Shown piece by piece: positions 8,417 to 54,650 of a DNA stretch of 64,000 nt (position 1 is the first letter of the stretch; every line of letters starts with the position of its first letter). Origin of the DNA: Myxococcota bacterium (GTDB lineage: Bacteria; Myxococcota_A; Polyangia; Polyangiales; Houyiibacteriaceae); the NCBI GenBank assembly GCA_028284955.1, contig JANQQS010000102.1:76275-140274 (forward strand), given 5' to 3'. Made by a program: the position numbers and the translations under genes. The notes below the pieces were generated by a model, which was given only the letters and a program-made list of their open reading frames with translations, did not search any database and had not been told where the DNA came from.

Positions 8417-8477
8417 AAGTTGGCCGTATCAGAGCGGGTTCGGCGCGGCAAATGGCCGCGGGGCACAGGCCGACCGG

Positions 8478-9692: not shown

Positions 9693-9894
9693 ACCACCCG
9701 GCGCGTTACGACGAGCCGCCGATTCCTTCCGTCCCTATCTTGTCTTGGTGCGTAGACTTCTCGAAGCCGGTCCTTGCGTTTTGTAAGATTTTGAAATCAA
9801 ATGCGAAAGTTGATGGTCCGGGCTCGTTCCGGTCGTTGACCGCTATACACGACGGTGATACCGTGAGACGATTTCCAGCGGCGCACTGCGTCAG

Positions 9895-39570: not shown

Positions 39571-39704
39571 TGGCCGGGGTATAGCATCGGTGACTTCCGG
39601 GGCGCATGCCGGAGGCGTCATCCTTGGACTTTCGATGTGTTCGGGGGTGCTAATTTGTGAGGATATCCGGGGGAGTGCGCGATTTTGAGCGGCCGGCTGA
39701 TGCG

Positions 39705-39733
39705 TTGACCATTTTTGTGGCCGTTGCTATAAG
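39705..39733 (+). promoter_or_regulatory. Candidate sigma70-type promoter of the glt/nfs-like operon (TTGACC, 17 nt spacer, TATAAG)
   Basis: Read directly, about 70 nt upstream of the ATG at 39807, which has a GGGAGGAAAAGGC Shine-Dalgarno region. Sequence match only. Confidence 0.35.
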
Positions 39734-39806
39734 CGCGAGGTCCGCAAGGCCGGGCGTTCGCAATCGGGCAGTCGGGCCCGTCGCTGTGAAGCTGGGAGGA
39801 AAAGGC

Positions 39807-40817: not shown

Positions 40818-43231
40818 TGACGCGCGCTTTGGGCTCGGCGAGGTCGGGCCGTGCAAACGTGCGTAGTGTGGCTGCCAGGGTGTCGCCGATCGTGGGAGTC
40901 GGGGCGCTATGCTGCGCCAGCGCAGTTGGCGTGGCGGCCGATGCTGAGGCTCAAAACGCCGAGGAAGTCGCCCGAGATCTCACCGCCATTGAGGGCGACG
41001 CCCAAAACCTGACGCGCCAACCGCTCAGGCGCGGTCGTCTGCGAAGTCGCACGCATGTAGAGGAGCGCCTTACCGACGGCGAGCTTTTCTATCGCCTTCA
41101 AGACTACATTCGCGCCAGCATCATTTTTACTGATATCGTCGATAACTATCCGCGCCATCGAGCATACCCGGACGCATTGTTCCTGCTCGCGGATTCGCTC
41201 TTCCAGGCGGGTGACTACCTCGGGGCTCGGGCAAAATTCCGAGTGGTTATCGATCGTGCCGGCGAACCTGCGTTTCGTCCTTATGTTCAGCGGGCGCTCG
41301 GCCGACTGATCGAAATCGCCATTCACATTCGGGACTTTGAAGGGGTGGAAGAACACTTTCAGCGTCTCAGTCGTTTGCCGCCGACCGAAGTGGAAGCCAC
41401 TACGGCCTACTTCCGCGCCAAGTATTTGTACAACAAGGCGGTTCCGGTCGACGAAGTGATGCGCGACGGGGACGATGCCGCGGCGATGCCGGAAGTAGAT
41501 TCCTCGACGCTCGAAGAGTCGCGCCGTGCATTCGAAGCGGTACCACAGGGTAGCCCCTACTACCCCCAAGCGCGATACTTCATCGGTGTGATCCACACGT
41601 TGCGGGGCGAGCTACCGCAGGCGATCGAAGCGTTCCGACGCGTGCTGCGGGGGAAAGGCGAGACGCTGGAGCATCGCAAGGTGGCTCACCTGACCCGCGT
41701 AGCCCTCGGCAGACTGTATTACGAGACGAATCAGCTCGACCAAGCGATCGAGGCATACCAGTCGGTTCCACGTACGTCGGAGCATTTCGATACCGCGCTC
41801 TATGAAATAGCCTGGGTCTACATTCGCCTGGGCGACGCGACTCGCGCGGAGCGGGCGCTCGAAGTGCTCTCGGTGGCAGCGCCGAGCAGTAAGTACATTC
41901 CAGACGGCAAGCTGCTGCGGGGCAATCTGCTGCTTCGAAACGGTCGCTTGGATGCCGCAAACAAGGTGTTCCGGTCGGTGCGCACGGAGTTCGGTCCGGT
42001 ATACCGAGAGCTCGAGGAGGTTCGTGAGCAACACGAAGACCTGCTCGGGTATTTTCGTGGGCTCGTTCGAGAGAATCTCGATACGTTCGATGCAGCGTCC
42101 ATCGTGCCGCCGAGTGCGCAGAAATGGACCACGCCGGGTAGCGACTTTGACCGCGCGATGTCCGCGCTGTCCGACCTGAGCCAATCGCGTCAGCTTGTTG
42201 CCGAAACAAGCGATCTCATTGTGCGCCTCAACGCTGCGATCGGTTCACCCAACCGCGTGAGTGTGTTTCCAGACTTGCGCTCTCAACGTGAACGGACGAC
42301 GGCCATTCGCAACCGTTTGGCTCGCGCACAGCGTGCGCTGATCCGAATCGAGGAATCCAACTCGTCAGGCGAAAGTGGGGAACTTCGCGAAGTCCGCGCG
42401 CAGCGGCGGCGCATCGAACGTTCGCTCGGTCGTATGCCCACCGACAACGACGATTTCATTATTCGAGACGACCAGTTGCTCAGTCGATATCGTCGGTTGC
42501 GGCGAGATTTGAGCGCACTCGAGGTCGAGCTGCTCGGTATCGAAGCACGAATCGTAGCCACCGATACGTTTGTCGGTGCCACTGCGAACGAGCAGCAAAA
42601 CGCCGAGGCGGTGACCAGCGAGCTCGGGCAGCACCGCGACGCAGTGGCGCGCTATCGTGAGCAGATCGCGGAGCTCGAGCGTCTGATCGAGATCGGTCGG
42701 ATCCAAGTGGGGGTAGGCGACGCACGCTATCGGCGGGACGACCGACTGCGGAATGAATATACGCAACTGCTTGAGCGCGAGCGCCGCTTGAGCGGCGGGC
42801 GACGGCCGGAGACAGACCGTTTGTTTGGGAAGATCGTTCGAGTGGAATCGATGCTCGATCGGCGCGATGCCCAGATCGAGCGCGTCGTCGAGGAACGCGT
42901 GAACGAGATGAAGCGGGTGATCGATGAAGAAAGCCAGAAGCTTACGGGCTATCAAGAATCGCTGGCTGCGCTCGAGGGCGAAACCGAAGAGGTGGTCGGT
43001 GCGGTGGCGTATGCGTCGTTCGGAGAGATTCGCGATCGGTTCTACAGCCTTGTACTACGCGCGGACGTCGGACGGATCGATGTGACGTGGGCGCGGCGCG
43101 AAGAGCACCGCACCCGTGTTGACATGCTGACCCGCGAGCGCTCCCGAGAGCTTCAGGCGCTCGACGACGAGTTTCGCGACATCATGGATGAACAGCCGGC
43201 CGGTGAGGAAGAAGAGGGAGGCGATCAGTGA
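40817..43231 (+). CDS. Periplasmic TPR plus long coiled-coil protein (GltC/NfsC-like position)
   Basis: The signal peptide is 'IVGVGALCCASAVGVAADAEAQ'. YbgF-like TPRs are present ('YRLQDYIRASIIF..YPRHRAYPDALFLLADSLFQAGDYLGAR'). About 350 aa of heptad-rich sequence and an acidic tail follow. Confidence 0.6.
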   Translation: MTRALGSARSGRANVRSVAARVSPIVGVGALCCASAVGVAADAEAQNAEEVARDLTAIEGDAQNLTRQPLRRGRLRSRTHVEERLTDGELFYRLQDYIRASIIFTDIVDNYPRHRAYPDALFLLADSLFQAGDYLGARAKFRVVIDRAGEPAFRPYVQRALGRLIEIAIHIRDFEGVEEHFQRLSRLPPTEVEATTAYFRAKYLYNKAVPVDEVMRDGDDAAAMPEVDSSTLEESRRAFEAVPQGSPYYPQARYFIGVIHTLRGELPQAIEAFRRVLRGKGETLEHRKVAHLTRVALGRLYYETNQLDQAIEAYQSVPRTSEHFDTALYEIAWVYIRLGDATRAERALEVLSVAAPSSKYIPDGKLLRGNLLLRNGRLDAANKVFRSVRTEFGPVYRELEEVREQHEDLLGYFRGLVRENLDTFDAASIVPPSAQKWTTPGSDFDRAMSALSDLSQSRQLVAETSDLIVRLNAAIGSPNRVSVFPDLRSQRERTTAIRNRLARAQRALIRIEESNSSGESGELREVRAQRRRIERSLGRMPTDNDDFIIRDDQLLSRYRRLRRDLSALEVELLGIEARIVATDTFVGATANEQQNAEAVTSELGQHRDAVARYREQIAELERLIEIGRIQVGVGDARYRRDDRLRNEYTQLLERERRLSGGRRPETDRLFGKIVRVESMLDRRDAQIERVVEERVNEMKRVIDEESQKLTGYQESLAALEGETEEVVGAVAYASFGEIRDRFYSLVLRADVGRIDVTWARREEHRTRVDMLTRERSRELQALDDEFRDIMDEQPAGEEEEGGDQ

Positions 43232-46200
43232 GCCTCGGACGAGTGCAGGCGCGCGTCGCAATCTTGGCGGCTCTTTCAGTTTTTCTAGCGGTTCCGTTTT
43301 TGCGAGCGCAGCCGTCGGAGGACGAAAGCGCTTCGCAAACAGACAAATCTTCCTCTGGGCGTCGCACGTCGGACACGTCGGGAGCGGAGGGCGGTGACGC
43401 CCAATCTGGCGCGAGCGAGTCTGGCGCCAGCAGCGAAAACGGCAGCGAAGCGACCGACTCACAAGGTGCGGCTCCACAAGATTCGGGAGGCACTCCACAG
43501 CCGACCGAGGAAGGGCAAGACGCCTCTGCCGCGAGCAGCTCAGAGGAAGGAGCAGGTTCTGGAAATACTTCTGGCGAAGTTCCGTTGCCGTCTTTCTTGG
43601 ATACCACGGATCGCCGGATCGTAGACGAGCGACCGCCGCCCTCGCCGGAGCAAGTTGCCGCGCTGCGAGAGATGGAAAAGGAAGTTGAGCGTTTTCAGCT
43701 CGTGGGCCAATCGTATCGGGCGACTGTGGTGTCGCTGGTGCGGCGAGAGTACCTCCGCCAGCGTCGCGGCCGTGACCAGTGGTACGGTCGGCAAATTCGC
43801 GATGAAGAGCGGATGCTCAACGAGGCTCGCGCGAACGCGATTCGTCAGTTCGAGCGTTTTATCGAGCGCTATCCAGACGACCCGACGTACACCCCGGACG
43901 CCATGTTTCGTCTCGGGGAACTCTATTTTGAGCGGAGCGCGGTTCAGTTTCAGGAGCAGTATGATGCGGCCCAGGCGGCTCGCGACCGCGGCGACGAAGA
44001 CGTCGAGCTTCCCGAGACCCCCGACTACCTGCCCACCATCGAACTCTACAAGCGTTTGGTTCGGAACTTTCCCGACTACCGCCGCATCGACGGCGTTCTG
44101 TATCTGATCGGCTACTGCTTGAACGAAATGGGGGAAATCGACGAGGCGCGTGAAGCCTGGTTGGCGCTTGCGTGTGCCAATAAGCATAAATACGACGCTT
44201 CGGAAAAGGTTCCTGACGAAGCAGAGCTGGCTGGCGAAGGCACCGAGGACGGCGATTCTGAAAAGGAAGCTGACCATCCCGCGCTCGAGCTCGACAAAGA
44301 AGAAGAAGAGGTTGCCGCGACGGGTCCGTTCGTCGATCCCTATCGCGATTGCAAACCGGTTCAGGAAGACGCGCGCTTCGTCAGCGAGACATGGTTTCGT
44401 ATCGGCGAGTACCACTTTGACGATTACGGCTCGCCACACGCGCTGGACCTAGCGATCAGCGCGTACAATCGCATTCTCACGGAGCCGGAGGACCGAAACT
44501 ACAACCTCGCTTTGTACAAGGTCGCTTGGGCGTACTACCGAGCGAGTCGGTATCCCGAGGCGATCAAGCATTTTGGGATGCTGGTGCAGTGGTCGGACGA
44601 TGAGCGTCAGCGAACCGGAAAGGCCGGTTCCGAACTACGCCCCGAGGCGATTCAATATCTAGGTATTGCGTTCGCGTACGACGATTGGAACGAGAATCAG
44701 GTTCCTGATCCCATTGAAGGGCAGCAAACGGGAATCGAACGGATTCAGAGCCCCAACCTGCTACCGCAAGATCGACCGTGGACGCCTGATGTGTACTTCC
44801 AGCTCGGTCAGGTTTACTTCGACGAGGCCAAATACCCGGAGGCCATTGCAGTCTGGCGCTTGGCGCTGGAGAAATGGCCGAACCACCGCATGGCGCCCGA
44901 GATAACAAACTTGGTGGCTCGCGCGCACCAGCGCCACAACGAGTTTGAAGATGCGATCGCGGCGCGCTCAGAGCTCGCTCGGTTTACCGAGGGTGGGGAC
45001 TGGTGGAACGCAAACGTCGACAATCCGAAGGAGCAGCGGCGTGCCGAGCAGCTCGCCGAAAACGCGCTCATCGCCACCGCCATTCATCACCATACCGAGG
45101 CTCAAAAGCTGCGAAGCCAGTGTGTCGCGGAGCAGGACGTTTCGAAATGCCGGTTGGCGCAGGAGCAATATGGGCTAGCCGCGGCAGCCTATCGTGGATA
45201 CCTCGAGCGATATCCCAACAACCCGCAGGCGTACGAGCTGCGATACAACCTCGCCGACGCGCTTTATTGGTCTGAAAATTACGAAGAAGCAGCCAAAGAA
45301 TACGCGGCCGTTCGCGACTCGAATCTTGACGACGCGCATCTTGCCGAATCGGCGCGGCGTGTCGTGGAGTCCATGAAGCGGATTGTCGATGCGGCGGTCG
45401 AACGGGGCGAGATTACAGTTCGGAACGAACCTCCGGCCGTGTCCGGTACTCCGCCCACGGTGCGGCCGACGGAGATGCCACAGCTTGTGCAAAGGCTTGC
45501 CCGGGCTCGCGAGATGTACATTGCGCGCGTGAGCGAAGAGCAGGATAGCGAGAATGTTCGCGAGGCGTACGATTACAACAACGCGCTTCTGCTCTACTGG
45601 TATGGCTACTGGCCCCAGGCGAAGAAGCGCTTTGAACGCATTTTTGATGAGCGCTGCACCGGTCGCTACGCGGATGAGACCGGCCGCGTCGCGTGGCTCA
45701 ATCTGCGCGAGATGGCGGTGCGGCTGCAGAACAATGACGAGCTTGAGCGGCTGGCCGCCGAGCTTCAAAAGCGCAAATGTACGTTTAGTTCGGATGAGAA
45801 CGCGGCTGCAGAGGTCGACTGTTCGCAGCCGGAGAATGCGGAACATCCCTTTTGCCTGGTGCAGGGAGACCTCAACGCGATCCAGTATCGGCGCGCGATC
45901 GAGGTGTACAAGAAGGCGGAGGGCGCGAGCGGTGATGAGCAGCGGCGCCTCTACGAGAGAGCGGCGACCATGTTGGTCAAAGCGGTCAACGAGAATCCGA
46001 ATGACCCCCAGGCACCGGTTGCTCTCGAATGGGCGGCAACAGCATTAGAACGCACGAGTCGGTTCGAATCGGCGGCGACGCTATATCAAAGGATTGTGAA
46101 CGAAGTGGGTCCGCGTCGTGCAGGAAGCGCTGAGGAGCAGGCTCGTCTCGATGCGATTTTGGCGAACGCGTACTTTCGCCTGGCGTTCAACGCGAACCGG

Positions 46201-47319
46201 TTTTTCGATTTCGATCGCGCGGTGGAGAACTACCGGGTGCTTGCCGATACCGACCGGTTTGAGAAATCGGGTGACGCCAAGGTGCAAGAGAAACGCGAAG
46301 ATGCGTTGATCAATGCGGCGATTATTCTTGAGCGCTTGCAGCGTTATGACCAAGCGACGCGATATTATCGTCGGGCGTACAGCTCCGTTTCTGATCCTGC
46401 GATCAAGCGTCGAGCGCTCTATCGAATCGGCGAAATCGCTTACAAGCAAAAGAACTGGAGCCGCACTGTCCGTGAGATGAGAAACTTCATCAAGAAATAC
46501 GGAGGCGATTCCTCGGCAGGCGAACTGGTGGTGTTGGCGCACTGGCGCATCGCGCAAGCGCGAAAAGCAGATCGGCAGGTCCGCGATTATCCGAAGGCCC
46601 TCGAAGCGGTGACCCAAGCGTTTAGCCGTTCAGGCCAAGCGGCGGGCTCCATTGCCGCTGAATACGCCGCGGAAGCGCGATTCCGGTTGGTGGATCCAGA
46701 AATCAAGAGCTTCGAGCGCTTTTCGATCAAACCGGGCCGTCCGGCGGACATGAAGGCCTACGTGCGTACGGTCACTTCCCAGATTGAATCCGGCGCGCGT
46801 CAGGCGCAGACACTGTCTGACGGGTACAGTCCCGTGCTCGCGTACCGGCGACCGACGTGGACGATCGCCTCCTTTGTTCGGCAGGGTCGAGTGTACGAGA
46901 TTTTGGCGCGAGCAGTGCTCAACGCGCCGTTTGTGATGCCCGCCGATATGCAACGACAGCTTCGCAGGGTCGGCCCGGATGCGCGCGAAGACGTGCGCAT
47001 TCAGGTGGAGGACCAGATTCGCCAAGTGCTCGATGAGCGAGTGCGGCCTATCGAATGTCTCGCCGTGGCGCGATACGCGCTTGCCGCGCGGGCGGCGCAA
47101 GCGGGAAGCATCGACGATGAGTATACCCGCGTAGCCATTGACCGGCTGCAGGCCTACGGCGACGAGCGCATCGCGGAGTGCATCGCCGAAGCGCAGCGAG
47201 CCGACTCCAGCTTCAAAGCTTATCGAGCGGGAGAGTTCACTCGCGCGCCGCGGGGCCAGGTCATGACGATTCGCCCTGGAACGGGAGCGCCGCCGCTAGC
47301 ATCGGGGGGTCGTCGATGA
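43228..47319 (+). CDS. Very large (1363 aa) secreted TPR protein, GltD/NfsD (AgmU)-like by size and position
   Basis: The signal peptide is 'VAILAALSVFLAVPFLRAQ'. An acidic Ser/Gly/Glu linker is followed by TPR-like repeats throughout ('YPDDPTYTPDAMFRLGELYFE', 'YNLALYKVAWAYYRASRYPEAIKHF'). The GTG start overlaps the preceding stop (GTGA). Confidence 0.6.
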   Translation: MSLGRVQARVAILAALSVFLAVPFLRAQPSEDESASQTDKSSSGRRTSDTSGAEGGDAQSGASESGASSENGSEATDSQGAAPQDSGGTPQPTEEGQDASAASSSEEGAGSGNTSGEVPLPSFLDTTDRRIVDERPPPSPEQVAALREMEKEVERFQLVGQSYRATVVSLVRREYLRQRRGRDQWYGRQIRDEERMLNEARANAIRQFERFIERYPDDPTYTPDAMFRLGELYFERSAVQFQEQYDAAQAARDRGDEDVELPETPDYLPTIELYKRLVRNFPDYRRIDGVLYLIGYCLNEMGEIDEAREAWLALACANKHKYDASEKVPDEAELAGEGTEDGDSEKEADHPALELDKEEEEVAATGPFVDPYRDCKPVQEDARFVSETWFRIGEYHFDDYGSPHALDLAISAYNRILTEPEDRNYNLALYKVAWAYYRASRYPEAIKHFGMLVQWSDDERQRTGKAGSELRPEAIQYLGIAFAYDDWNENQVPDPIEGQQTGIERIQSPNLLPQDRPWTPDVYFQLGQVYFDEAKYPEAIAVWRLALEKWPNHRMAPEITNLVARAHQRHNEFEDAIAARSELARFTEGGDWWNANVDNPKEQRRAEQLAENALIATAIHHHTEAQKLRSQCVAEQDVSKCRLAQEQYGLAAAAYRGYLERYPNNPQAYELRYNLADALYWSENYEEAAKEYAAVRDSNLDDAHLAESARRVVESMKRIVDAAVERGEITVRNEPPAVSGTPPTVRPTEMPQLVQRLARAREMYIARVSEEQDSENVREAYDYNNALLLYWYGYWPQAKKRFERIFDERCTGRYADETGRVAWLNLREMAVRLQNNDELERLAAELQKRKCTFSSDENAAAEVDCSQPENAEHPFCLVQGDLNAIQYRRAIEVYKKAEGASGDEQRRLYERAATMLVKAVNENPNDPQAPVALEWAATALERTSRFESAATLYQRIVNEVGPRRAGSAEEQARLDAILANAYFRLAFNANRFFDFDRAVENYRVLADTDRFEKSGDAKVQEKREDALINAAIILERLQRYDQATRYYRRAYSSVSDPAIKRRALYRIGEIAYKQKNWSRTVREMRNFIKKYGGDSSAGELVVLAHWRIAQARKADRQVRDYPKALEAVTQAFSRSGQAAGSIAAEYAAEARFRLVDPEIKSFERFSIKPGRPADMKAYVRTVTSQIESGARQAQTLSDGYSPVLAYRRPTWTIASFVRQGRVYEILARAVLNAPFVMPADMQRQLRRVGPDAREDVRIQVEDQIRQVLDERVRPIECLAVARYALAARAAQAGSIDDEYTRVAIDRLQAYGDERIAECIAEAQRADSSFKAYRAGEFTRAPRGQVMTIRPGTGAPPLASGGRR

Positions 47320-48704
47320 TGGTCGTTCGTGTAGAAGAGCGTCGCTGGCTCGTCTCCGTCATTGCATGTGCGCTAGCGCTGGGCTCAGCGTGTAAACGCG
47401 ACGGTGGGGGAACGACTCCAGAAGGGTCCGCCTCCGCTGGAGGATCGGGCGGCGAAACAGCAGCGGGGGAAGACGGCGCCATCGAGGACCAGGATTGGGA
47501 CGGCGACGGCAAACCAGATTCATCCCAACCTGGTGAAGAAGGCACGAGCCAGTGGGGGGCGACCCGGGCCGAGCAATGCCGACAAAACCCGCGTCCGGAA
47601 ATGAAGTCCTCGGCGCAAGGGCCGTTTCGCGATGGTGTGCGAGCAGCCGGCGCGGGCGACGTTGCAGGCGCGCGTCGTTTATTTCAGCAAGCGCTGAGCG
47701 CTGACCCGAAAGCGTACCAAGCTGCATACAACCTGGGTGTTCTCGCCGATCGCTCGGGTCAAGAATCCAAGGCGATCGAGCAGTATCAAAACACGCTGCG
47801 CATTCAGTCTGATTATGCACCGGCCGCCAAAGGGATCGTCACCATTCATCTGCGGCGCGGCCAAGTTTCGCGAGCAGTTTCGTTTGTGGAACCCGTCGCG
47901 AGGAAACATGGGAACAATCTCGCGATACAAGCGCTTGCGGCCGAGGTGATGGTGCAGGCAGAGCGCTTCGACGATGCGTGGACGCTCGCGCGGAAGGCGC
48001 TCAAATGTGACGAGCGATACGTACCGGCCCTGATCGCGCTGGTGAAGGCGAGCCGCAAGCAAGGGCGAAAAGAACTAGCCGAGTCGATTCTCGACCAAGC
48101 GTTGGGGATGCAGGGAAACAACGCGGAGCTGCATTTTTTGAAGGGTATGATGTTGCGGGACGAGCCCGGCCGCTTGCGCGACTCGATGAAAGAGTTTCGA
48201 CGCGCAGTTGAGCTCCGACCTTCCTACGCCGAGGCTCGGATGGCGCTGGGCGTGCAGCTCCTCGCAGGAGGAAATTACAACGAAGCGGTTGCCCAGTTCG
48301 AGGCGGCAGTGCGGCTGACCCCGACGGTGACCGCCGTGCACTTGAATCTCGCGGACGCGTATCGTGCAAATAAGCAGTGGGCGAAGGCCAAAGCCTCGTT
48401 CGATCGGGTATTGAGATCGAAGCCTGATTTGCCTCAAGCTCATTTCAATCTCGGGCTTATGTACCTCACCGCGAAAGGAGATTTTCCCGGTCTGGATGAG
48501 CTCGGAGCGCTTAAGAAAGCCGTGGAAGAGTTTACGAAGTATCGCAATGTGATGGGACCCCGGCTGCCTCGCGACGATCAGAGCGAAGAATATCTTCGTG
48601 ATTTGAAGCGGCAGATCGAGCGTACCGAACGTCGCATCGAGCGAGACAAAGCGAGGAAGAAGCGTGCGGCGGAGCGCGGTGCGCGCGGGGAAGCAAGCCA
48701 GTGA
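47316..48704 (+). CDS. TPR-repeat lipoprotein, GltE/NfsE (AglT)-like
   Basis: The ATGATG start overlaps the upstream stop (ATGA at 47316-47319). The lipobox is 'ACALALGSAC'. An acidic linker is followed by about 8 canonical TPRs ('AYNLGVLADRSGQESKAIEQYQNTLRIQSDYAPA'...) and a basic coiled tail. Confidence 0.65.
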   Translation: MMVVRVEERRWLVSVIACALALGSACKRDGGGTTPEGSASAGGSGGETAAGEDGAIEDQDWDGDGKPDSSQPGEEGTSQWGATRAEQCRQNPRPEMKSSAQGPFRDGVRAAGAGDVAGARRLFQQALSADPKAYQAAYNLGVLADRSGQESKAIEQYQNTLRIQSDYAPAAKGIVTIHLRRGQVSRAVSFVEPVARKHGNNLAIQALAAEVMVQAERFDDAWTLARKALKCDERYVPALIALVKASRKQGRKELAESILDQALGMQGNNAELHFLKGMMLRDEPGRLRDSMKEFRRAVELRPSYAEARMALGVQLLAGGNYNEAVAQFEAAVRLTPTVTAVHLNLADAYRANKQWAKAKASFDRVLRSKPDLPQAHFNLGLMYLTAKGDFPGLDELGALKKAVEEFTKYRNVMGPRLPRDDQSEEYLRDLKRQIERTERRIERDKARKKRAAERGARGEASQ

Positions 48705-48997
48705 TGGGAAGCGCTATGCAAACATCAACATCCAGGATGCGGACAGTGTTCCTTGCCCTTTTGCTGATCTGCGGGCTTGCAGGATGGTTTTTGCCATCGA
48801 CGAGTCATGCGCAAGGTCGTGGTCGCCGTTCCGGGCCGCGGGTCATTCAGCTAGAAGAAATTCGGATAGAAGGCCGCGTGCAAAAGCCCAATGCCTTCTA
48901 CATTCTGAACCGCTCGAATCTTGGATACGAAGTGTTGGATCTACGAACCAGCTTTCTACGAGAAATCGTGCGGAGTGTACAACGCCCTCCTTTTTGA
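48701..48997 (+). CDS. Small (about 97 aa) signal-anchored protein, GltF/NfsF-like position
   Basis: The GTGATG start overlaps the upstream stop. The signal/anchor is 'VFLALLLICGLAGWFLPSTSHAQ'. The conserved-looking core is 'VIQLEEIRIEGRVQKPNAFYILNRS'. Confidence 0.55.
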   Translation: MMGSAMQTSTSRMRTVFLALLLICGLAGWFLPSTSHAQGRGRRSGPRVIQLEEIRIEGRVQKPNAFYILNRSNLGYEVLDLRTSFLREIVRSVQRPPF

Positions 48998-49044
48998 GCG
49001 GGTCTGGCCGTCCGTTTGTTTGAGTGTTTGGCGCTGTTTTGTCT

Positions 49045-49460
49045 GAGGGTTTGGCACCCAAACCCTCTCGTCGGGGTACGCCCCCGCCGATTCACCCAAG
49101 CTCCCCCGCCAGGAAGCACGTGACCTGGTTGCGTGAGGGTGAACTGCGGGGTCTCCGCCGCTTTGCGTCGGGGCGGCCGCGGAAGCGGCCGGAGTCGGGA
49201 GGGGGACCCGAGCGGGTCGTACCCGGAGGGTTTGCCTCAAACCCTCCAGAGAACACAGCTCCCCCTCCAGGATGCACGCGATCTGGTTGTCTAGTGGGTG
49301 AACTGCGGTGGTCAGTTCGCACAATCACCGCAACGAACGTGCAACGCGTAACCGGGGCCCCGTCGCGGAGCGATGGGGCGGCCGCGAACGCGGCCGGCGT
49401 CGGGAGGGGGGCCCCGCGGAATCGTATTCCGCGGGGGGAGGGGCTGCGGCCAGCCCCTCC
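49045..49460 (+). repeat. Structured intergenic region: two diverged copies of a ~160-210 bp unit, each with a perfect 10-bp hairpin and two conserved blocks, ending in two adjacent strong hairpins
   Basis: Hairpins are GAGGGTTTGG-cac-CCAAACCCTC (49045-49067) and GGAGGGTTTG-cct-CAAACCCTCC (49225-49247). Block 49099-49153 aligns with 49257-49313, and block 49169-49209 aligns with 49375-49415; the latter contains GGCCGC-ggaa-GCGGCC versus GGCCGC-gaac-GCGGCC. The terminal hairpins are 49412-49436 (11 bp) and 49437-49460 (10 bp). Confidence 0.8.
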
Positions 49461-49475
49461 AGAAATGAGCGCACT

Positions 49476-50069
49476 ATGACGGCGATTCACGTTGCGCAGA
49501 TTGTGCTCGGGGGAGCCGCGGCGTTTGTTGTGGCGGCTCGGGTTCGTGCGCTTGGTTTTCAGGCGCCGCTCGGTGATTCGCGTTCCTCAAGAAGCTCGGA
49601 CTATGTGGGCGCTGTTCGCGCCGCGCACCGACAGGGAGACGAGTCGCGATTGCGGTTCTTACTACGGTCGGGGCAGGCCGCGTGGAGTTCACGTGTTTTG
49701 TCGGCGATCTGCTTCGGTGGCGCTGGAAATGCAGATGAAGAGAGGGCGCTCGACGATGTGGTCCACGAACTTCGGTATGAGGCACGTCGAGGACTGTGGG
49801 TGTTGCGCGGTTTCGCCCGAATCGGCACGCTGACGGCGCTTCTTGGCGCGCTTTGGGAGGTACTCACGGTATCGACCAAAAAGCAGAGCATTCTCGGCTT
49901 GAAGGCAGGGTTTGTGGAAACGGTCGCGATCGAAAACGCAAGCTTGGCGCTCGCTATGGGGATTTCGATTACCGGATTTTGCTGGGCGTGCGCGCATATC
50001 TTGCAGCGCCAGGCGACGCAGCTGCTCGACGAAGTGTTGCGGATGGAGGAAGTACGTGGGCTGGAGTGA
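49476..50069 (+). CDS. 3-TM membrane protein, possibly a degenerate MotA/TolQ/ExbB-family channel subunit
   Basis: The topology is TM1 (res ~5-25), a ~100-aa loop, then TM2 and TM3, as in TolQ/ExbB. 'FARIGTLTALLGALWEVL' resembles the TolQ TM2 'ISPYIGLFGTVWGIM'. 'ASLALAMGISITGFCWACAHILQRQATQL' resembles the TM3 '[29 protein letters not shown]'. I chose the ATG at 49476 because the ORF's upstream 56 aa lie in the repeat region. Confidence 0.4.
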   Translation: MTAIHVAQIVLGGAAAFVVAARVRALGFQAPLGDSRSSRSSDYVGAVRAAHRQGDESRLRFLLRSGQAAWSSRVLSAICFGGAGNADEERALDDVVHELRYEARRGLWVLRGFARIGTLTALLGALWEVLTVSTKKQSILGLKAGFVETVAIENASLALAMGISITGFCWACAHILQRQATQLLDEVLRMEEVRGLE

Positions 50070-50214: not shown

Positions 50215-51672
50215 ATGAACCAGACACAGGGGCAAAAGGGTCGAGGGTCAAAGCCGGGTGCGATGACCATGGCGATGCAGGCAGTTTCCAAGCCTGCAGG
50301 GCCGAAGGTATTGCGAATCGGCATTATTCAAAGCGGCAAGATCGTCGAAGAACGCATTATTCGGCGTAGAGAGACCGTGTCGGTCGGCACATCAGAAAAG
50401 AACCATTTCATCCTGCACACCGAGGGGCTGCCTTCGCGTTTCGATCTCTTTCAGGTCGTCGGGTCGGATTACATTCTGAATTTCACAGACCAGATGACAG
50501 GTCGCGTAGGACTCCCCGGCGGCGTCCAGCAGCTAGACCAGCTGCGCAGCGGAGGCGGCGCACGCAATGCGGGTTCTCACTTTCAGGTGAAGCTTAGCGA
50601 CACGTCGCGCGGCAAGATCGTCATCGGCGGCATCACGCTGCTTTTTCAGTTTGTGACTCCGCCTCCGGTCACGCCGCGCCCGCAGCTGCCGGCAGCCGCC
50701 CGCGGCGGTTTCGTCAAAGGAATCGACTGGCTCTTCACAGCATTTGTCGTGTTTTCCTACATGACGTTTTTCGGATTCGTGATTTATCTCGAAAATGCGG
50801 ATTGGGAGATTCAGCAAGGGATCGCACAAGTTCCAGAAAGCATGGCTCGACTGATTTTCGAAGAGCCGGTTCCACCTCCCGATGAGCCCGAACCCACCGA
50901 CGAACCAACCGAGGAAGATGCTTCCGAGGAAGCGACCGAGGAGTCGAAGCCGACGCCAACAAAACGCGCCCCCAGCAAAGCCTCGGGTGGAGATAAGAAC
51001 AACGCAGAAGACCCCGCAACGAACGCGGAAGCCAGAGCGCGAATCGCCCAAGAAGCTGCGGCCCAAGCTGAGGCTATGATTCTGGGCGCGTTGGGCGAGG
51101 GAGGCGCTCTTTCGGACGTACTCGCCGGGGGCGCGGTGACCGGCAACGCTGAGGATGTGTTGGCGCAGGCATCGGGTGTGGGCGTGGCTCAAGGTCGATC
51201 CGGGGGAGCCTTGCGCACGCGATCTGGAGGCGGCGGCAGCGGCCAGCAGGGTGGCCTCGGAGGATTGCGCGCGTCGAAAGGTGCGGGTCGAGCGGCCGGC
51301 GAGGGTGGCGAAGTCGTGGAGCGCAGGATTCGCGGAAATATCAAGCTTGAGTCAGGTGGCGATATCGGCGGATCGGGCGATTTTGATAGCGCGCTGGTGG
51401 TCCGGCAGATCCGCAAGCGGATTCGTGCGATTCAGCGGTGTTATGAAACCGAGCTTCGCAAAAATCCAAGTCTCGCAGGTAAGGTAACGGTTCAGTTCAC
51501 GATTCAGGAGCGAGGAAACGTAACCGGAGCGAGGGCGACGCAAAACACCACCGGAAGCGCTGCGGTGGCCTCCTGCGTGACCCGAACAGTCGGTCGTTTT
51601 CGTTTCAATCCCGGCCCTGACGGGGGAAGCGTAAGCTTCAGTTACCCGTTCGTGTTCGCGCCACAAAACTGA
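50215..51672 (+). CDS. GltG/GltJ (PglI/AgmX)-like protein: FHA-like N-domain, TM helix, Pro/Glu-rich linker and AgmX/PglI C-terminal (TonB-C-like) domain
   Basis: The C-terminus is 'LVVRQIRKRIRAIQRCYETELRKNPSLAGKVTVQFTIQERGNVTGA...CVTRTVGRFRFNPGPDGGSVSFSYPFVFAPQ', which is the CYE..L..NP..GKV...YPFVF pattern of the AgmX/PglI domain. The TM helix is 'IDWLFTAFVVFSYMTFFGFVIYL'. The linker includes 'PVPPPDEPEPTDEPTEED'. Confidence 0.8.
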   Translation: MNQTQGQKGRGSKPGAMTMAMQAVSKPAGPKVLRIGIIQSGKIVEERIIRRRETVSVGTSEKNHFILHTEGLPSRFDLFQVVGSDYILNFTDQMTGRVGLPGGVQQLDQLRSGGGARNAGSHFQVKLSDTSRGKIVIGGITLLFQFVTPPPVTPRPQLPAAARGGFVKGIDWLFTAFVVFSYMTFFGFVIYLENADWEIQQGIAQVPESMARLIFEEPVPPPDEPEPTDEPTEEDASEEATEESKPTPTKRAPSKASGGDKNNAEDPATNAEARARIAQEAAAQAEAMILGALGEGGALSDVLAGGAVTGNAEDVLAQASGVGVAQGRSGGALRTRSGGGGSGQQGGLGGLRASKGAGRAAGEGGEVVERRIRGNIKLESGGDIGGSGDFDSALVVRQIRKRIRAIQRCYETELRKNPSLAGKVTVQFTIQERGNVTGARATQNTTGSAAVASCVTRTVGRFRFNPGPDGGSVSFSYPFVFAPQN

Positions 51673-51987: not shown

Positions 51988-52620
51988 ATGAACAGACGCA
52001 CGCGCGTCACAATCACGATTTCCGCGATATGCTTGGGTGCCTGGACGCCATTTGCGTTCGGTGTATTCGGCGAAGCATCGGCGCAGGACGGCGTAGCCGG
52101 AACCGAAGGCACAGCCGGCGTTGATGCGTCGACCGACGAAGAAGCAGAAGTCGACGTTCGCAAACGTGCAGACCTAAGCTCGGACGAGCAGCTTCAGGAA
52201 GCGGAGTCGATTGTCCGTCGTGGGGCGCAGATCAGTCGTCGGGTGGCGGCGATGCTCGATCAGTCGCGCCGAGAGCGAGACATTATTCGCGTGACTTGCC
52301 TTGACGATAAGCTTACTCAGGTGAACGCAAACCTCCGGACATCTGAGCAACGGGTCAAGTCGCTCCGCGATGCGTCTGCGGCGAATGATGCGAATCGACG
52401 CAAACATGAGTACACCGTGATCACGGTTCTTGGACAAAAGTTCAACGTGCTAGAGCAGGAAGCGAACCAGTGCGTTGGCCAGGATTTATTTGACACCGGG
52501 GCGACGCGGGTCACAACCGACATTGACCCAGACACGCCCAACGAAGATCCCTCCACGACGCCAGAGCCGCCGCCGCCGCCTGTCCCGTTTATTCCGCCGC
52601 CCGCCAGTCCAGCTGTTTGA
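51988..52620 (+). CDS. Secreted coiled-coil protein with a Pro-rich C-terminus (GltH/NfsH position)
   Basis: The signal peptide is 'ITISAICLGAWTPFAFGVFGEASAQ'. An acidic linker and helical heptads ('DKLTQVNANLRTSEQRVKSLRD') follow. The C-terminus is 'PEPPPPPVPFIPPPASP'. Confidence 0.55.
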   Translation: MNRRTRVTITISAICLGAWTPFAFGVFGEASAQDGVAGTEGTAGVDASTDEEAEVDVRKRADLSSDEQLQEAESIVRRGAQISRRVAAMLDQSRRERDIIRVTCLDDKLTQVNANLRTSEQRVKSLRDASAANDANRRKHEYTVITVLGQKFNVLEQEANQCVGQDLFDTGATRVTTDIDPDTPNEDPSTTPEPPPPPVPFIPPPASPAV

Positions 52621-52705: not shown

Positions 52706-54070
52706 ATGACTTCAGGCGCCTTGGGTCATCGTAGCCTCGCTTACCACGGGCTTTTGTTTGCCACGACCTTGTTGCTCGCTCTCGCTGGCACGGCGTCATG
52801 GGGTTCTGGTAAGGCGGGCGCTCAAGCGTGGCTCCAAGATCGCGCTCGCGCCGAGGGTCCTGGTTTTCGTTTGGGTCGTCTCGAGTTGCATCCCGGAATC
52901 GGTGCAGAAGCGGGCTACGATTCAAACGTCTTTTTGTCTGATCAAAACGAAGTCGGCAGCGCGATTCTCCGCATCACTCCGCACCTCGACCTTGCGACAC
53001 TTGGTCCCCAACGAACCGACGACTTGGTGGAAGGCGATGAACAGCCGGTGCTCCCCAAGGTTGAGTTCCGAACCGGCGTTTCGGCCTCGCTTTATTACTT
53101 CTTTGACGACGCGCCTCAGAGCAACGTCGGCGTCGATGCGAATATGCGGCTCACGATCATGCCGGAGCGGCCGGTATCGTTCACCATATTCGATACCTAC
53201 TCTCGAAACATTCGCCCGTTCACGGAAGAAGGCGGCGGAAACGACTTTGCCCGAAACCAAAACGACGTCGGCGGCATGTTTACGTTTTCGTCGCGCGGCG
53301 GCGTGTTGACTGCCCGGGCAGGGTACACGCTCCGTGCTGACCTCTTCGAGAGCAACTCGTTCGACTACGCCAACAGTCTCACCCATCGCGGGGAGACAGG
53401 GATTACCTGGAGATTCCTGCCCCAGACGGCTCTCATTCACGATACGAGGGTCGACTATACGGACTACACCAGCAGTGCACCTTCCTCGCTTTTGCTGGGA
53501 GACAACACCCGCTTGCGATCGCGGGTGGGTGTCAATGGCGCACTGACTAAGAAGATTTCGTTTCTTGCCGCGGCGGGTTACGGCGCCGTGTTCATCTCGG
53601 ATGATGCATTTCGCGAGACAGACACCGTCGTGGCTCAAGGAGAGCTTCGCGTTCGTTTCCGGCCAGACTTGCGCTGGGCGTTGGGGTACGACCGTGACAT
53701 CGCCGGTTCCTTCGTAGGAAGTTTTTTCGTTCGAGATCGCGGATACACAAACTTGAATCTGCTCCTTGGAGGAGCATTTCTCCTCGGGGTGGAGGGCTCT
53801 GTATCCTACCTCGATTTCGGTTCTGCGCTTGAACCGGACGGCACCGCGCTTGGCGTAGGCGACACGACCGAACGTACCGATATCGTTGTGCGCGCGTCTT
53901 TGTTCGCGGAATATCGCTTCACCGATTGGCTCGCGATCAATGGGACTTTTGGGTACACCGCGGATTTCACGGACTTCGAGTTCACCCGCGTTGCGGCCAC
54001 CACGACGTTCCCGGACCCGGCCGACTTCCAGAAGTTTGAGGCTTGGTTTGGCGTTCGAGCATTCTACTAG
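52706..54070 (+). CDS. Outer-membrane beta-barrel protein of the polysaccharide-secretion type (Wzp/ExoB/EpsX-like)
   Basis: A signal peptide is present. 'LELHPGIGAEAGYDSNVF' is typical of EPS-associated barrels. Many alternating amphipathic strands follow, and the terminal 'FEAWFGVRAFY' has an aromatic last residue. Confidence 0.7.
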   Translation: MTSGALGHRSLAYHGLLFATTLLLALAGTASWGSGKAGAQAWLQDRARAEGPGFRLGRLELHPGIGAEAGYDSNVFLSDQNEVGSAILRITPHLDLATLGPQRTDDLVEGDEQPVLPKVEFRTGVSASLYYFFDDAPQSNVGVDANMRLTIMPERPVSFTIFDTYSRNIRPFTEEGGGNDFARNQNDVGGMFTFSSRGGVLTARAGYTLRADLFESNSFDYANSLTHRGETGITWRFLPQTALIHDTRVDYTDYTSSAPSSLLLGDNTRLRSRVGVNGALTKKISFLAAAGYGAVFISDDAFRETDTVVAQGELRVRFRPDLRWALGYDRDIAGSFVGSFFVRDRGYTNLNLLLGGAFLLGVEGSVSYLDFGSALEPDGTALGVGDTTERTDIVVRASLFAEYRFTDWLAINGTFGYTADFTDFEFTRVAATTTFPDPADFQKFEAWFGVRAFY

Positions 54071-54650
54071 GCCAATCTGGATTCTCCCGATTCTGGCGAC
54101 GTTTGCGGTCGCGTGTGGGGCGCGGTCGCCGGCGCCGGTGCCTCCGCCTCCGCTCAATGACACGACGCTGGGGTCGGGGGATGTGTTTCAAGTTCGTGTG
54201 TTCGGCGAGAAAGAGCTTTCTAACTCGTACCGCGTGGCTGAGGACGGGACGATTGACTTCCCGCTGATCGGCGCCGTTGAAGTCGCCGGCCTGGAGCCGC
54301 CCGCCGTGGCGAGCGTGATTTCCAATCGATTGCGCACCGCGGGCATATTGCGCGCGCCGCAAGTGTCTGTACTCGTCGAGGAATACAACTCAAAACGGAT
54401 CAGTGTGTTGGGTGCGGTGTCCAAACCGGGGACCTTCCCCATGTCCGCGGGAATGACGGTGGTTCAAGCCATAAGCCTTGCGGGAGGATTCACCCCGCTC
54501 GCCAACCAAGACGACACCGTGGTCACGAGGCGGCTCAACGGAGAGCTTCGTCGCTTTCGGGTTCCGGTCGAAAAGATCTCAGAGGGACGCTCGAGTGACT
54601 TTCCCGTGCGCGCTGGAGATATCGTGTACGTTCCGGAGCGGATATTCTAA
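54048..54650 (+). CDS. Short outer-membrane polysaccharide export (OPX/Wza-family) lipoprotein lacking a C-terminal membrane-spanning helix
   Basis: The Poly_export domain is 'GSGDVFQVRVFGEKELSNSYRVAEDGTIDFPLIGAVEVAGLEPPAVASVISNRL'. One SLBB domain is 'VLGAVSKPGTFPMSAGMTVVQAISLAGG' through 'GDIVYVPERIF-stop'. There is no ATG. I propose the TTG at 54048 (alternative 54036), which gives 'MAFEHSTRPIWILPILATFAVAC' with a lipobox. Confidence 0.8.
   Translation: MAFEHSTRPIWILPILATFAVACGARSPAPVPPPPLNDTTLGSGDVFQVRVFGEKELSNSYRVAEDGTIDFPLIGAVEVAGLEPPAVASVISNRLRTAGILRAPQVSVLVEEYNSKRISVLGAVSKPGTFPMSAGMTVVQAISLAGGFTPLANQDDTVVTRRLNGELRRFRVPVEKISEGRSSDFPVRAGDIVYVPERIF

Follow-up and report, generated by a model that had tools for sequence, protein, structure and literature searches.

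How does a gene that looks like an ion channel subunit come to lie inside a cluster of Glt-like structural genes, and what might its product do there in the absence of the usual partner gene? The MotA/TolQ/ExbB superfamily supplies the pentameric "A" subunit of 5:2 ion-driven motors. A first-pass annotation of the 64-kb stretch of DNA analyzed here (the window, meaning the whole of that stretch) had singled out one gene as an orphan, degenerate member of this superfamily and had named a stator adaptor, a pseudo-stator, and an unrelated membrane protein as its possible roles. We examined the gene together with its neighbors and with 82 related loci from Polyangiales/Sandaracinaceae, which were gathered through the GltG-like neighbor, a protein far better conserved than the TolQ-like family itself.

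The gene and its Glt-like cluster

The TolQ-like gene is an intact open reading frame (ORF) on the plus strand, running from an ATG at 49476 to a TGA at 50067 to 50069. Its GC content by codon position is 0.67/0.50/0.65, next to 0.68/0.46/0.67 in the neighboring real genes, and the ORFs that overlap it lack such a pattern. The ATG start is backed by the N-terminal consensus of the family, MTxxHxxQ; a longer version starting with GTG at 49308 was rejected on its flat codon-position GC and on the family N terminus. Hydropathy and AlphaFold agree on hydrophobic segments at residues ~3 to 25, 107 to 133, and 150 to 176, with a helical loop of ~80 residues past TM1, and so uphold the three-helix TolQ/ExbB topology proposed at first pass. 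The position assigned to the gene at that stage, between a gltF-like and a gltG-like gene, agrees with the profile matches of the neighbors (weak for GltF, E value = 2e-3). The features are as follows.

40817..43231, + strand: GltC-like protein, 804 aa (by position and size, against a 788-aa gene of related locus L002, MXAN_1923 [809 aa], and Hoch_6494 [823 aa])
43228..47319, + strand: GltD-like large protein, 1363 aa (by position and size, against a 1322-aa gene of L002)
47316..48704, + strand: GltE-like TPR lipoprotein, 463 aa (NF033758, E value = 2e-32)
48701..48997, + strand: GltF/CglF-like small secreted protein, 98 aa, directly upstream of the TolQ-like gene (NF033764, weak)
48998..49475, no strand: noncoding spacer, 478 bp, from the gltF-like to the TolQ-like gene (particular to the window)
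49476..50069, + strand: TolQ/ExbB/MotA-like gene, 197 aa (coding pattern, homologues, and fold)
49482..49550, + strand: TM1 of the TolQ-like protein, ~residues 3 to 25 (hydropathy; column counts for Q8, R22, and R24)
49794..49874, + strand: TM2 of the TolQ-like protein, ~residues 107 to 133, motif ALLGALWEV (hmmalign against E. coli TolQ/ExbB; HMMER against PDB TolQ)
49923..50003, + strand: TM3 of the TolQ-like protein, ~residues 150 to 176 (hmmalign against E. coli TolQ/ExbB; column counts)
50215..51672, + strand: GltG-like TonB-type protein, 485 aa, directly downstream of the TolQ-like gene (NF033760, E value = 1e-47; NF033768, E value = 4e-26; TonB_C)
50710..50790, + strand: single TM helix of the GltG-like protein, ~residues 166 to 192, FVKGIDWLFTAFVVFSYMTFFGFVIYL, with invariant Asp171 (alignments)
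51988..52620, + strand: secreted protein, 210 aa, in the GltH position (193- to 194-aa conserved gene in related loci L001 and L002)
52706..54070, + strand: outer-membrane beta-barrel (BBP2_2) in the Wzp position, adjoining the OPX gene (PF10082, E value = 1e-5; same order in L001 and L002)
53886..54650, + strand: short polysaccharide-export (OPX) protein, Wza-like (Poly_export, E value = 7e-21; SLBB; coordinates are ORF limits)

The order gltC-D-E-F-(TolQ-like)-gltG-gltH-Wzp-Wza is the same in L002 and, from a cut gltD-like gene onward, in L001. By gene order, the cluster is a G4-type Glt-like cluster matching Myxococcus xanthus MXAN_1919-1923 beside WzpB/WzaB. The C-, D-, E-, F-, and G-like proteins measure 809/1111/490/91/447 aa in M. 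xanthus and 804/1363/463/98/485 aa here, in the same order, and the beta-barrel and short-OPX pair (WzpB/WzaB, MXAN_1916/1915) adjoins in both; WzpB is MXAN_1916 (PMC9603273). Counterparts of the GltD-like gene by position and size are MXAN_1922, GM21_0439, and Hoch_6495 (PMC3169522 Table S3), and insertion in MXAN_1922 left motility unaffected (PMC3169522). In L002, the 788-aa gene in the GltC position has faint TPR matches. The C-terminal motif of the GltF-like protein, PRVIQLEEIxIEGRVQKPNAFYILNRSNLGYEV, hardly varies among the loci inspected, and the GltG-like protein is 66 to 71% identical to its L002 and L001 orthologues. Pfam and NF-type profile scans gave no family match for the protein in the GltH position. 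The OPX counterparts in L001 and L002 are 195 to 199 aa long, and the true start of the OPX gene probably lies later than the ORF limit at 53886.

The gap between the gltF-like and TolQ-like genes is ~70 nt or less in other loci, or the two genes overlap. The 478-bp spacer of the window contains an imperfect internal duplication and four perfect 10- to 11-bp hairpins. It has no Rfam match and no second copy elsewhere in the window or in the 82 loci, and a mobile repeat or an RNA was rejected on these grounds. An ORF within it (49024 to 49479, 151 aa) was judged noncoding on its flat codon-position GC (0.70/0.69/0.64).

Kinship with TolQ, ExbB, and MotA

Taken alone, the window protein has no Pfam match at an E value of ≤1, PF01618 included, and a word-indexed protein search with the single sequence returned nothing beyond itself. 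Its family comprises at least 69 homologous cluster representatives at an E value of ≤1e-3, aligned over the full length. PF01618 (MotA_ExbB) is matched by 35 of the 52 aligned family members (best E value, 2.9e-9), and its gathering cutoff (22.9 bits) is exceeded by 5 of 10 close relatives. When searched against the PDB, the family profile had TolQ (E value = 3e-4), MotA (1.5e-3), and ExbB (1.8e-3) as top matches, with the ExbB match spanning positions 4 to 187 of the 201 in the profile. An AlphaFold model of the protein reached a pLDDT of 91.7 and a pTM of 0.83 (a single-sequence model, with a pLDDT of 48, was not used). Its 35 best Foldseek matches in the PDB were all TolQ, ExbB, MotA, or PomA, over the whole length, with query-normalized TM-scores of 0.43 to 0.67 (mostly 0.5 to 0.67, and 0.59 to 0.67 for the 12 best). 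The similarity to MotA/TolQ/ExbB that had been suspected at first pass was thus found by Pfam profile, by PDB profile search, and by fold comparison.

An unrelated three-helix membrane protein might resemble TolQ by chance, and the missing Pfam match of the lone window protein would fit this, as would the weak hhalign results obtained when the family was compared with E. coli TolQ and ExbB as individual sequences (probabilities of 7% and 46%, E values of 5e-3 and 2e-4). However, PF01618, the PDB profile search, Foldseek, and the locus searches converge on TolQ, ExbB, and MotA specifically, and several family members are already named MotA/TolQ/ExbB by NCBI and IMG. We consider the probability of a chance resemblance negligible, and the earlier option of an unrelated membrane protein is ruled out by the profile and fold matches.

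TolQ and ExbB (PF01618; PDB 9ddm, 8odt, and 5sv0) are the best profile and fold matches. They share with the window protein the three-helix topology and the long TM2 and TM3 reaching into the cytoplasm; the TM2 GLxG and TM3 AxxxxxxG motifs are retained in the window family, and the window gene, like theirs, adjoins a gene for a TonB/TolA-like single-pass protein. The window protein is ~30 to 45 residues shorter than TolQ/ExbB (197 aa versus 230 aa for TolQ, in line with the ~30 aa first estimated), and its family differs in having residues of its own (Gln8 in TM1, Arg111, and Glu/Gln128) and no TolR/ExbD. A family HMM from which the window copy had been left out gives it 164 bits, with a median of 157 bits for the 52 locus-derived members. 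These results indicate that the window gene is typical of its subfamily, which is specific to Polyangiales and lacks TolR.

The missing partner and the altered channel

Pfam scans of the ~45 predicted genes of the window detected no ExbD (PF02472) and no second MotA_ExbB match, and tblastn of the window with E. coli TolR, ExbD, TolQ, and ExbB gave a best E value of 0.13. Across the 82 related loci, E. coli TolR and ExbD had no match within 10 kb at an E value of ≤0.1, and E. coli TolQ and ExbB matched the TolQ-like gene family only. The word "orphan" therefore holds for the 64 kb of the window and for 10 kb around the gene in each of the 82 loci.

We counted residues per column in 104 family members, with positions mapped by hmmalign to E. 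coli TolQ and ExbB; the alignment gives the same pairings as those first proposed, both for ALLGALWEV with IGLFGTVWGI and for ALAMGISITGF. At the position of TolQ Thr145 (ExbB Thr148) the window protein has Ala125, and the family has Ala in 70, Val in 21, and Gly in 9 members. At that of TolQ Thr178 (ExbB T181) the window has Leu159 and the family Met, Val, Ile, or Leu. At either Thr position, Thr and Ser are absent from the four commonest residues, which cover 91 to 103 of the 104 members. TolQ Glu173 (ExbB E176) is replaced by Asn154 in the window and most often by Arg (48) or His (12) in the family. The TolQ P138 (ExbB P141) position holds Thr118 in the window and Ser (64), Thr (17), or Pro (6) in the family. 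The TolQ Pro187 (ExbB P190) position holds Val, Phe, or Leu, with Phe168 in the window, so that the TM3 proline is indeed missing, as had been observed. Pore Thr, Glu, and Pro are thus replaced family-wide, which gives substance to the earlier term "degenerate."

Other positions are kept. Gly162 of the window protein, at the position of TolQ Gly181, is conserved, Gln8 in TM1 is nearly invariant (86/104), and Arg22 (77/104) and Arg24 (79/104) follow TM1, which fits a cytoplasmic side. The strongly conserved family-specific residues are Q8, R111, G138, L139, L142, G145, A155, G162, and L176. Residue 128 in TM2 is polar and particular to the family (Glu in 55 and Gln in 24 of 104; Glu128 in the window), and Glu/Gln128, one turn from the lost Thr, could together with Gln8 preserve some ion or partner chemistry. 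A precedent for such a role of Glu128 is GldL, the A-type subunit of the Bacteroidetes gliding/T9SS motor, in which the key charge is a Glu on A and not an Asp on B. GldL itself spans the membrane with two TM helices and depends on GldM, an obligatory partner that carries a TM arginine; nothing like GldM is seen here, and conservation of Glu128 is only 53%. Since Glu occurs at this position in only 55 of the 104 members, it is not an obligatory carboxylate, and a GldL-like essential Glu128 was rejected.

These residues bear on whether the protein could still be a working stator A subunit, that is, an ion-conducting pentamer whose TolR-type (AglQ/AglS-like) subunits are encoded elsewhere in the genome. 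Its complete TolQ fold, the purifying selection on the gene (see below), and the conserved polar residue at position 128 would suit such a subunit, and partners in trans would be normal, since in M. xanthus the genes of the Agl motor lie apart from the glt and nfs clusters (PMC3169522). However, every known TolQ/ExbB proton-path residue is now nonpolar or basic across the 104 members, and position 128 offers Glu in just over half of them. None of the 82 loci has a TolR-type gene within 10 kb, and the TolQ-like gene evolves faster than gltG, has disappeared from a large clade, and is not part of the M. xanthus and Haliangium G4 clusters. We therefore regard a working stator as unlikely; if it were true, the G4-type machine would have its own dedicated motor ring. 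Given the loss of both the TolR-type partner genes and the channel-lining residues, the protein is most likely a nonconducting membrane adaptor. Of the roles first listed, "pseudo-stator or adaptor" is the best supported, with the partner genes absent and the pore residues replaced, and the pipeline name "MotA/TolQ/ExbB proton channel" given to some members probably overstates their function.

The probable partner of such an adaptor is the GltG-like protein. Two-hybrid assays and an AglR5QS-GltG model both have AglR bound to the TM segment of GltG (PMC3169522; PMC11761067), and the GltG helix is peripheral and TolA-like in that model (PMC11761067). In our loci, the GltG helix carries the motif IDW[L/V/M]FTAF in 50 of the 52 loci with the TolQ-like gene, IDWTFTTW in 19 of the 20 loci of the clade that lost it, and IDWSFSAF in the independent loss, L077. 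At L074, where gltG is duplicated in tandem, the copy adjoining the TolQ-like gene keeps Val and the distal copy has Thr. This covariation of motif and gene presence hints at a contact between the TolQ-like protein and the GltG helix. The correlation comes down to about three independent events, and phylogeny confounds it. The helix, including Asp171 and an ENxDW end, is as conserved in clusters without the TolQ-like gene, so GltG must have another membrane partner and the TolQ-like protein cannot be its sole dock.

The same helix could be read as the axle of a TolR-less, two-component motor, in which GltG, as a fused TolR/TonB, would place Asp171 (motif IDWxFT) inside a TolQ-like ring whose polar chemistry had shifted to Glu/Gln128. 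The invariant Asp171 sits close to the cytoplasmic end of its helix, as do TolR Asp23, ExbD Asp25, and MotB Asp32 in theirs. In 52 loci the two genes are next to each other, and the helix motif covaries with the presence of the TolQ-like gene. However, Asp171 and the whole helix are equally conserved where the TolQ-like gene is absent, a TolQ-like ring would be without the polar Thr residues usually found opposite the Asp, and the peripheral place of the GltG helix in the published model (PMC11761067) is not that of an axle. Such a motor is very unlikely; if real, it would be a previously unseen 5:2-type architecture, linked to a Glt-like complex next to a polysaccharide exporter.

Retention, loss, and origin of the gene

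In 52 of the 82 related loci, the TolQ-like gene has gltF before it and gltG directly after it, and conservation at the same position, one of the checks proposed at first pass, was thereby found. The gene is missing from 21 of the 82; 20 of these group together as a single clade in the GltG tree, and with the separate loss in L077 it has been lost at least twice. The clusters of M. xanthus (MXAN_1919-1923) and Haliangium (Hoch_6494-6498) lack it as well (PMC3169522 Table S3); there, the locus tags from the gltF-like to the gltG-like gene are consecutive and leave no TolQ-like gene between them. The ORF is intact in full-length loci (four matches are short or cut at contig ends), with no premature stop in the 52 related loci or the window. 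In the nine closest pairs (identity of ≥62%), dN/dS is 0.09 to 0.37, indicating that selection is purifying. In most closer pairs, dN is 2 to 9 times that of gltG, and among relatives whose GltG proteins are 66 to 76% identical, the TolQ-like proteins share 23 to 38% identity. The gene is thus conserved yet fast-evolving, accessory, and dispensable in a whole clade.

Fast evolution to such low identity, the vanished motor residues, the repeated losses, and the 478-bp insertion that parts the gene from gltF in the window are what one would expect of a decaying, functionless remnant, a pseudogene not yet disrupted. This explanation is quite improbable: the ORFs are free of premature stops, dN/dS is well under 1 in close pairs, and the nine residues from Q8 to L176 listed above are strongly conserved. 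In addition, AlphaFold had enough covariation to reach its pLDDT of 91.7, and the window copy matches the family HMM as well as the median member does.

As to origin, the position of the gene matches that of a known motor gene. The Geobacter core order is GM21_0438 gltC, 0439 gltD, 0440 gltE, (0441), 0442 aglR, 0443 aglQ, 0444 aglS, and 0445 gltG (PMC3169522 Table S3), in which aglR occupies the same slot, past gltE and a small gene and ahead of gltG. AglR (MXAN_6862) and the aglR products of Geobacter and Bdellovibrio likewise belong to the MotA/TolQ/ExbB superfamily, at 211 to 248 aa versus 197 aa here. Unlike in the AglR clusters, no aglQ or aglS (TolR type) follows the window gene, and in contrast to AglR, the window family has the pore Thr, Glu, and Pro replaced, evolves much faster, and is dispensable in a whole clade. 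The gene is very probably a highly diverged member of the MotA/TolQ/ExbB superfamily and an in-place descendant of aglR, kept in the G4-type Polyangiales cluster after the loss of aglQ and aglS; it is gene position that would favor descent from aglR over descent from another TolQ/ExbB paralogue.

A channel-like subunit in the structural operon with no TolR had been called unusual. As regards placement, this does not stand: a TolQ-type gene within a Glt-type cluster is the ancestral arrangement, found in Geobacter and Bdellovibrio (PMC3169522 Table S3). As regards the lost TolR-type partners, it does. Literature searches found no description of the window gene.

In the mechanism that we propose, the TolQ-like protein would no longer conduct protons and would keep the TolQ fold, probably as an oligomeric ring in the inner membrane. 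It would serve as an accessory dock or adaptor for the TM helix and cytoplasmic part of the GltG-like TonB-type protein, and so may anchor or tune the trans-envelope Glt-like complex encoded beside the Wzp/Wza polysaccharide exporter, with any energy input coming from a motor encoded elsewhere. Oligomeric state, GltG contact, and lack of ion conduction are inferred features, whereas homology, fold, conserved position, absence of a partner gene, loss of the pore residues, purifying selection, and dispensability were observed. As a complete mechanism, an AglR relic acting as a nonconducting adaptor for the GltG-like protein is a tentative proposal, with a chance of being right that is even at best.

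Read in this way, the gene would be a physical trace backing the model of how the gliding and sporulation machines of myxobacteria evolved (Luciano et al. 2011): the TolR-type partners have gone and the working motor has relocated, yet a motor gene persists at its ancestral place within a Glt-type cluster. The family may also be seen as a natural experiment in which the TolQ/ExbB fold, freed from ion conduction, reveals which of its surfaces persist and which go; those still conserved are Gln8 in TM1, the periplasmic GxxGLxxLxAG loop, and Arg111. Moreover, an accessory subunit that is present or absent by lineage would offer a handle on the function of the G4 cluster and on its link to Wzp/Wza export.

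Homology of the TolQ-like gene to MotA/TolQ/ExbB

The TolQ-like gene lies in a cluster of genes named after the Glt gliding machine of M. xanthus, whose TolQR-type motor is AglRQS.

Features of the cluster region in the window
38110-39621 (-): gene just upstream of the cluster and divergent from its first gene; from its translation alone it resembles a response-regulator receiver plus sigma-54 AAA+ activator; candidate regulator of the Glt-like operon
39657-40817 (+): first cluster gene; ORF of 386 aa, true start probably further in; signal or TM segment, acidic low-complexity region, coiled coil and C-terminal domain; no family match; a 267-aa gene holds this position in the related locus L002
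48998-49475: 478-bp noncoding spacer between the gltF-like and TolQ-like genes
49476-50069 (+): TolQ-like gene; intact ORF of 197 codons, ATG to TGA
50710-50790: single TM helix of the GltG-like protein (residues ~166 to 192)
52706-54650: beta-barrel and OPX pair

Pfam and NCBIfam matches agreed with the gltF-like and gltG-like neighbors named in the first-pass annotation. The neighbors are a GltE-like TPR lipoprotein (NF033758, E = 2e-32), a 98-aa GltF/CglF-like protein (weak match, E = 2e-3) and, downstream, a 485-aa GltG-like protein (NF033760, E = 1e-47; AgmX/PglI tail, E = 4e-26; TonB_C). The codon-position GC of the TolQ-like ORF (0.67/0.50/0.65) agrees with that of clearly real neighbors such as a 1363-aa gene (0.68/0.46/0.67). 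The ORFs overlapping it and an upstream ORF (49024-49479) had flat or inverted codon-position GC; the upstream ORF was rejected. A Kyte-Doolittle scan recovered the three-TM layout described previously, with hydrophobic segments at residues ~3 to 25, ~107 to 133 and ~150 to 176.

Taken by itself, the window protein matched nothing in Pfam or NCBIfam, and a word-indexed protein search returned only the protein itself. When 1.8 billion cluster representatives were scanned exhaustively with HMMER, 69 full-length relatives emerged (185 to 232 aa, 23 to 39% identity), and 35 of the 52 members in the family alignment matched PF01618 MotA_ExbB (best E = 2.9e-9), with 5 of 10 close relatives exceeding the Pfam gathering cutoff. 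The top PDB sequences for the family profile were TolQ (3e-4), MotA (1.5e-3), ExbB (1.8e-3; profile positions 4 to 187 of 201) and PomA. AlphaFold with the family alignment gave a confident model (pLDDT 91.7, pTM 0.83) in which TM2 and TM3 are long helices, and the best 35 Foldseek matches in the PDB were without exception TolQ, ExbB, MotA or PomA chains (query-normalized TM-score, 0.43 to 0.67; top 12, 0.59 to 0.67). These results establish the homology of the family to MotA/TolQ/ExbB, the resemblance first noted for this gene, and hmmalign reproduced exactly the TolQ residue pairings given then. A family HMM that left it out scored the window protein at 164 bits, the family median, so it is an ordinary member. 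The labels in NCBI and IMG are "MotA/TolQ/ExbB" or "ExbB/TolQ" for several members and "hypothetical" for others. The protein is a TolQ-fold inner membrane protein.

Residue changes and selection

In an alignment of 104 members with TolQ and ExbB of E. coli, the proton-path residues are systematically replaced; the pore chemistry has been lost across the family. The TM3 proline (TolQ P187), earlier reported as missing, is indeed absent.

Residues at TolQ/ExbB positions in the family (n = 104) and in the window protein
TolQ T145 / ExbB T148: Ala 70, Val 21, Gly 9; window Ala125
TolQ T178 / ExbB T181: Met, Val, Ile, Leu; window Leu159
TolQ E173 / ExbB E176: Arg 48, His 12; window Asn154
TolQ P138 / ExbB P141: Ser or Thr; window Thr118
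TolQ P187 / ExbB P190: Val, Phe, Leu; window Phe168

TM2 and TM3 keep the glycines of their GLxG and AxxxxxxG motifs, respectively. Conserved specifically in the family are Gln8 in TM1 (86/104), Arg22 and Arg24 after TM1, Arg111, residue 128 in TM2 (Glu 55, Gln 24; n = 104), Ala155, Gly162, Leu176 and a periplasmic turn, GxxGLxxLxAGxxE. A rival reading takes the gene for a decaying remnant. Its dN is 2 to 9 times that of gltG in most of the closer pairs, and its dN/dS is 0.09 to 0.37 in the nine pairs with candidate identity of ≥62%; the gene is under purifying selection. Selection maintains it, yet it is dispensable in some lineages.

Cluster order, gene loss and the missing partner

The gene had been called an orphan, and no partner was located in the 64 kb: by Pfam scan the ~45 predicted genes of the window contain neither an ExbD/TolR domain nor a second MotA_ExbB domain, and tblastn using TolR and ExbD of E. 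coli found nothing. Through the well-conserved GltG-like neighbor we gathered 80 loci from species-representative genomes, nearly all MAGs labeled Polyangiales, Sandaracinaceae or Myxococcota/Myxococcales, and added two metagenome loci (82 loci, up to 10 kb per side). There, E. coli TolR and ExbD matched nothing at E ≤ 0.1 (best E = 0.23), and matches to E. coli TolQ and ExbB were confined to the TolQ-like family. The absence of a partner gene is therefore a trait of the whole family. The gene could also encode a stator whose TolR-type partners act in trans, a rival reading to be weighed with the replaced proton-path residues. A second TonB_C/TonB_2 protein (19764-21101, -; 445 aa; coding score low for its length) is encoded well away from the cluster and has neither ExbB nor ExbD in its vicinity.

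As previously described, the gene sits between the gltF-like and gltG-like genes, and the family HMM placed it immediately 5' of gltG in 52 of the 82 loci. In 21 others gltF directly adjoins gltG, 45 to 137 nt from a conserved start motif, which means that these loci lack the gene. Twenty of these form one clade in a neighbor-joining tree of GltG, and the remaining one, L077, is a separate loss; clusters of this type thus had the gene ancestrally, and at least two losses followed. The window order (first gene, gltC-like, gltD-like, gltE-like, gltF-like, TolQ-like, gltG-like, a 190- to 210-aa gene, a BBP2_2 beta-barrel and a short Poly_export protein) is shared by L002 and, from its cut gltD-like gene onward, by L001.

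Several loci vary. In L062, ~2 kb separates the TolQ-like and gltG-like genes; in L074 (Sandaracinaceae), gltG is tandemly duplicated (8180-9700 and 9854-11413) downstream of the TolQ-like gene (7240-7830). L056 and L057 share one 9.5-Mb MAG chromosome (JASGJH010000001.1): one carries the TolQ-like gene, and the other has a different context, with no gltF or TolQ-like gene upstream. In related loci the gltF-like and TolQ-like genes overlap or lie ≤~70 nt apart. Inside the window spacer lie an imperfect internal duplication, with an 82-nt match at 73% identity and a 33-nt match at 88% (spacing, 158 to 205 nt), and four perfect 10- to 11-bp hairpins (49045-49067, 49225-49247, 49412-49436 and 49437-49460), with no copies elsewhere in the window or the 82 loci and no Rfam match.

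The aglR slot, the G4 cluster and the GltG-like helix

According to the model of Luciano et al. (2011; PMC3169522), the ancestral core complex consisted of gltC, D, E, G and aglR, Q, S, genes that are clustered in gammaproteobacteria and Geobacter. In Geobacter sp. M21 the order is GM21_0438 gltC, 0439 gltD, 0440 gltE, (0441), 0442 aglR (211 aa), 0443 aglQ, 0444 aglS and 0445 gltG, and Bdellovibrio clusters likewise keep aglRQS next to glt genes (PMC3169522, Table S3). The TolQ-like gene occupies exactly the aglR slot, but the window cluster lacks aglQ and aglS. Gene sizes and order agree with M. xanthus "G4" (MXAN_1923, 809 aa; 1922, 1111; 1921, 490; 1920, 91; 1919, 447; PMC3169522, Table S3), and the beta-barrel/OPX pair resembles the WzpB and WzaB beside it (MXAN_1916 and MXAN_1915; PMC12819527, PMC9603273); the window cluster is therefore of the G4 type. 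Consecutive tags from gltF-like to gltG-like in M. xanthus and Haliangium (Hoch_6494 to Hoch_6498; PMC3169522, Table S3) indicate that those clusters lack the TolQ-like gene, of which our literature searches found no published description.

In the window, L001 and L002, the Glt-like cluster is followed by the BBP2_2 beta-barrel and short Poly_export/SLBB protein (a Wzp/Wza-type pair), and in the window by polysaccharide-synthesis genes up to 63919 (methyltransferase, NAGPA, two DegT aminotransferases, glycosyltransferase, GNAT, Bac_transf, PIG-L and WbqC). This arrangement suggests a functional link between G4-type machines and polysaccharide export, of which we found no discussion in the literature consulted on these clusters.

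The TolQ-like gene always adjoins a TonB/TolA-like single-pass protein, a homologue of the GltG that binds AglR (PMC3169522) and is modeled as AglR5QS-GltG (PMC11761067). In the GltG-like protein the helix is very strongly conserved and carries an invariant Asp (IDW; Asp171) near the cytoplasmic end, Thr175, Ser181 and a periplasmic ENxDW end; an Asp placed at such a depth is reminiscent of TolR, ExbD and MotB more than of TonB or TolA. A TolR-less motor with the GltG helix as its axle is a further rival, to be set beside that Asp and the lost pore chemistry. The motif IDW[L/V/M]FTAF occurs in 50 of the 52 loci with the gene, whereas 19 of the 20 loss-clade loci read IDWTFTTW and L077 reads IDWSFSAF; of the L074 duplicates, the copy adjoining the gene has Val and the distal one Thr. 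This correlation, underlain by few independent events, weakly hints that the TolQ-like protein may contact the helix. The helix, including Asp171 and the ENxDW end, is equally conserved without the gene, which counts against an exclusive GltG partnership. We propose that the protein would form a nonconducting ring or partial ring, docking the GltG-like helix and cytoplasmic domain as an accessory adaptor, with energy supplied by a motor encoded elsewhere.

Overall, both the original observation and its interpretation are supported: the gene is a TolR-less, channel-degenerate form of MotA/TolQ/ExbB, probably of the AglR lineage. It matters mainly as evolutionary evidence and as a likely case in nature of a motor subunit turned to another use.
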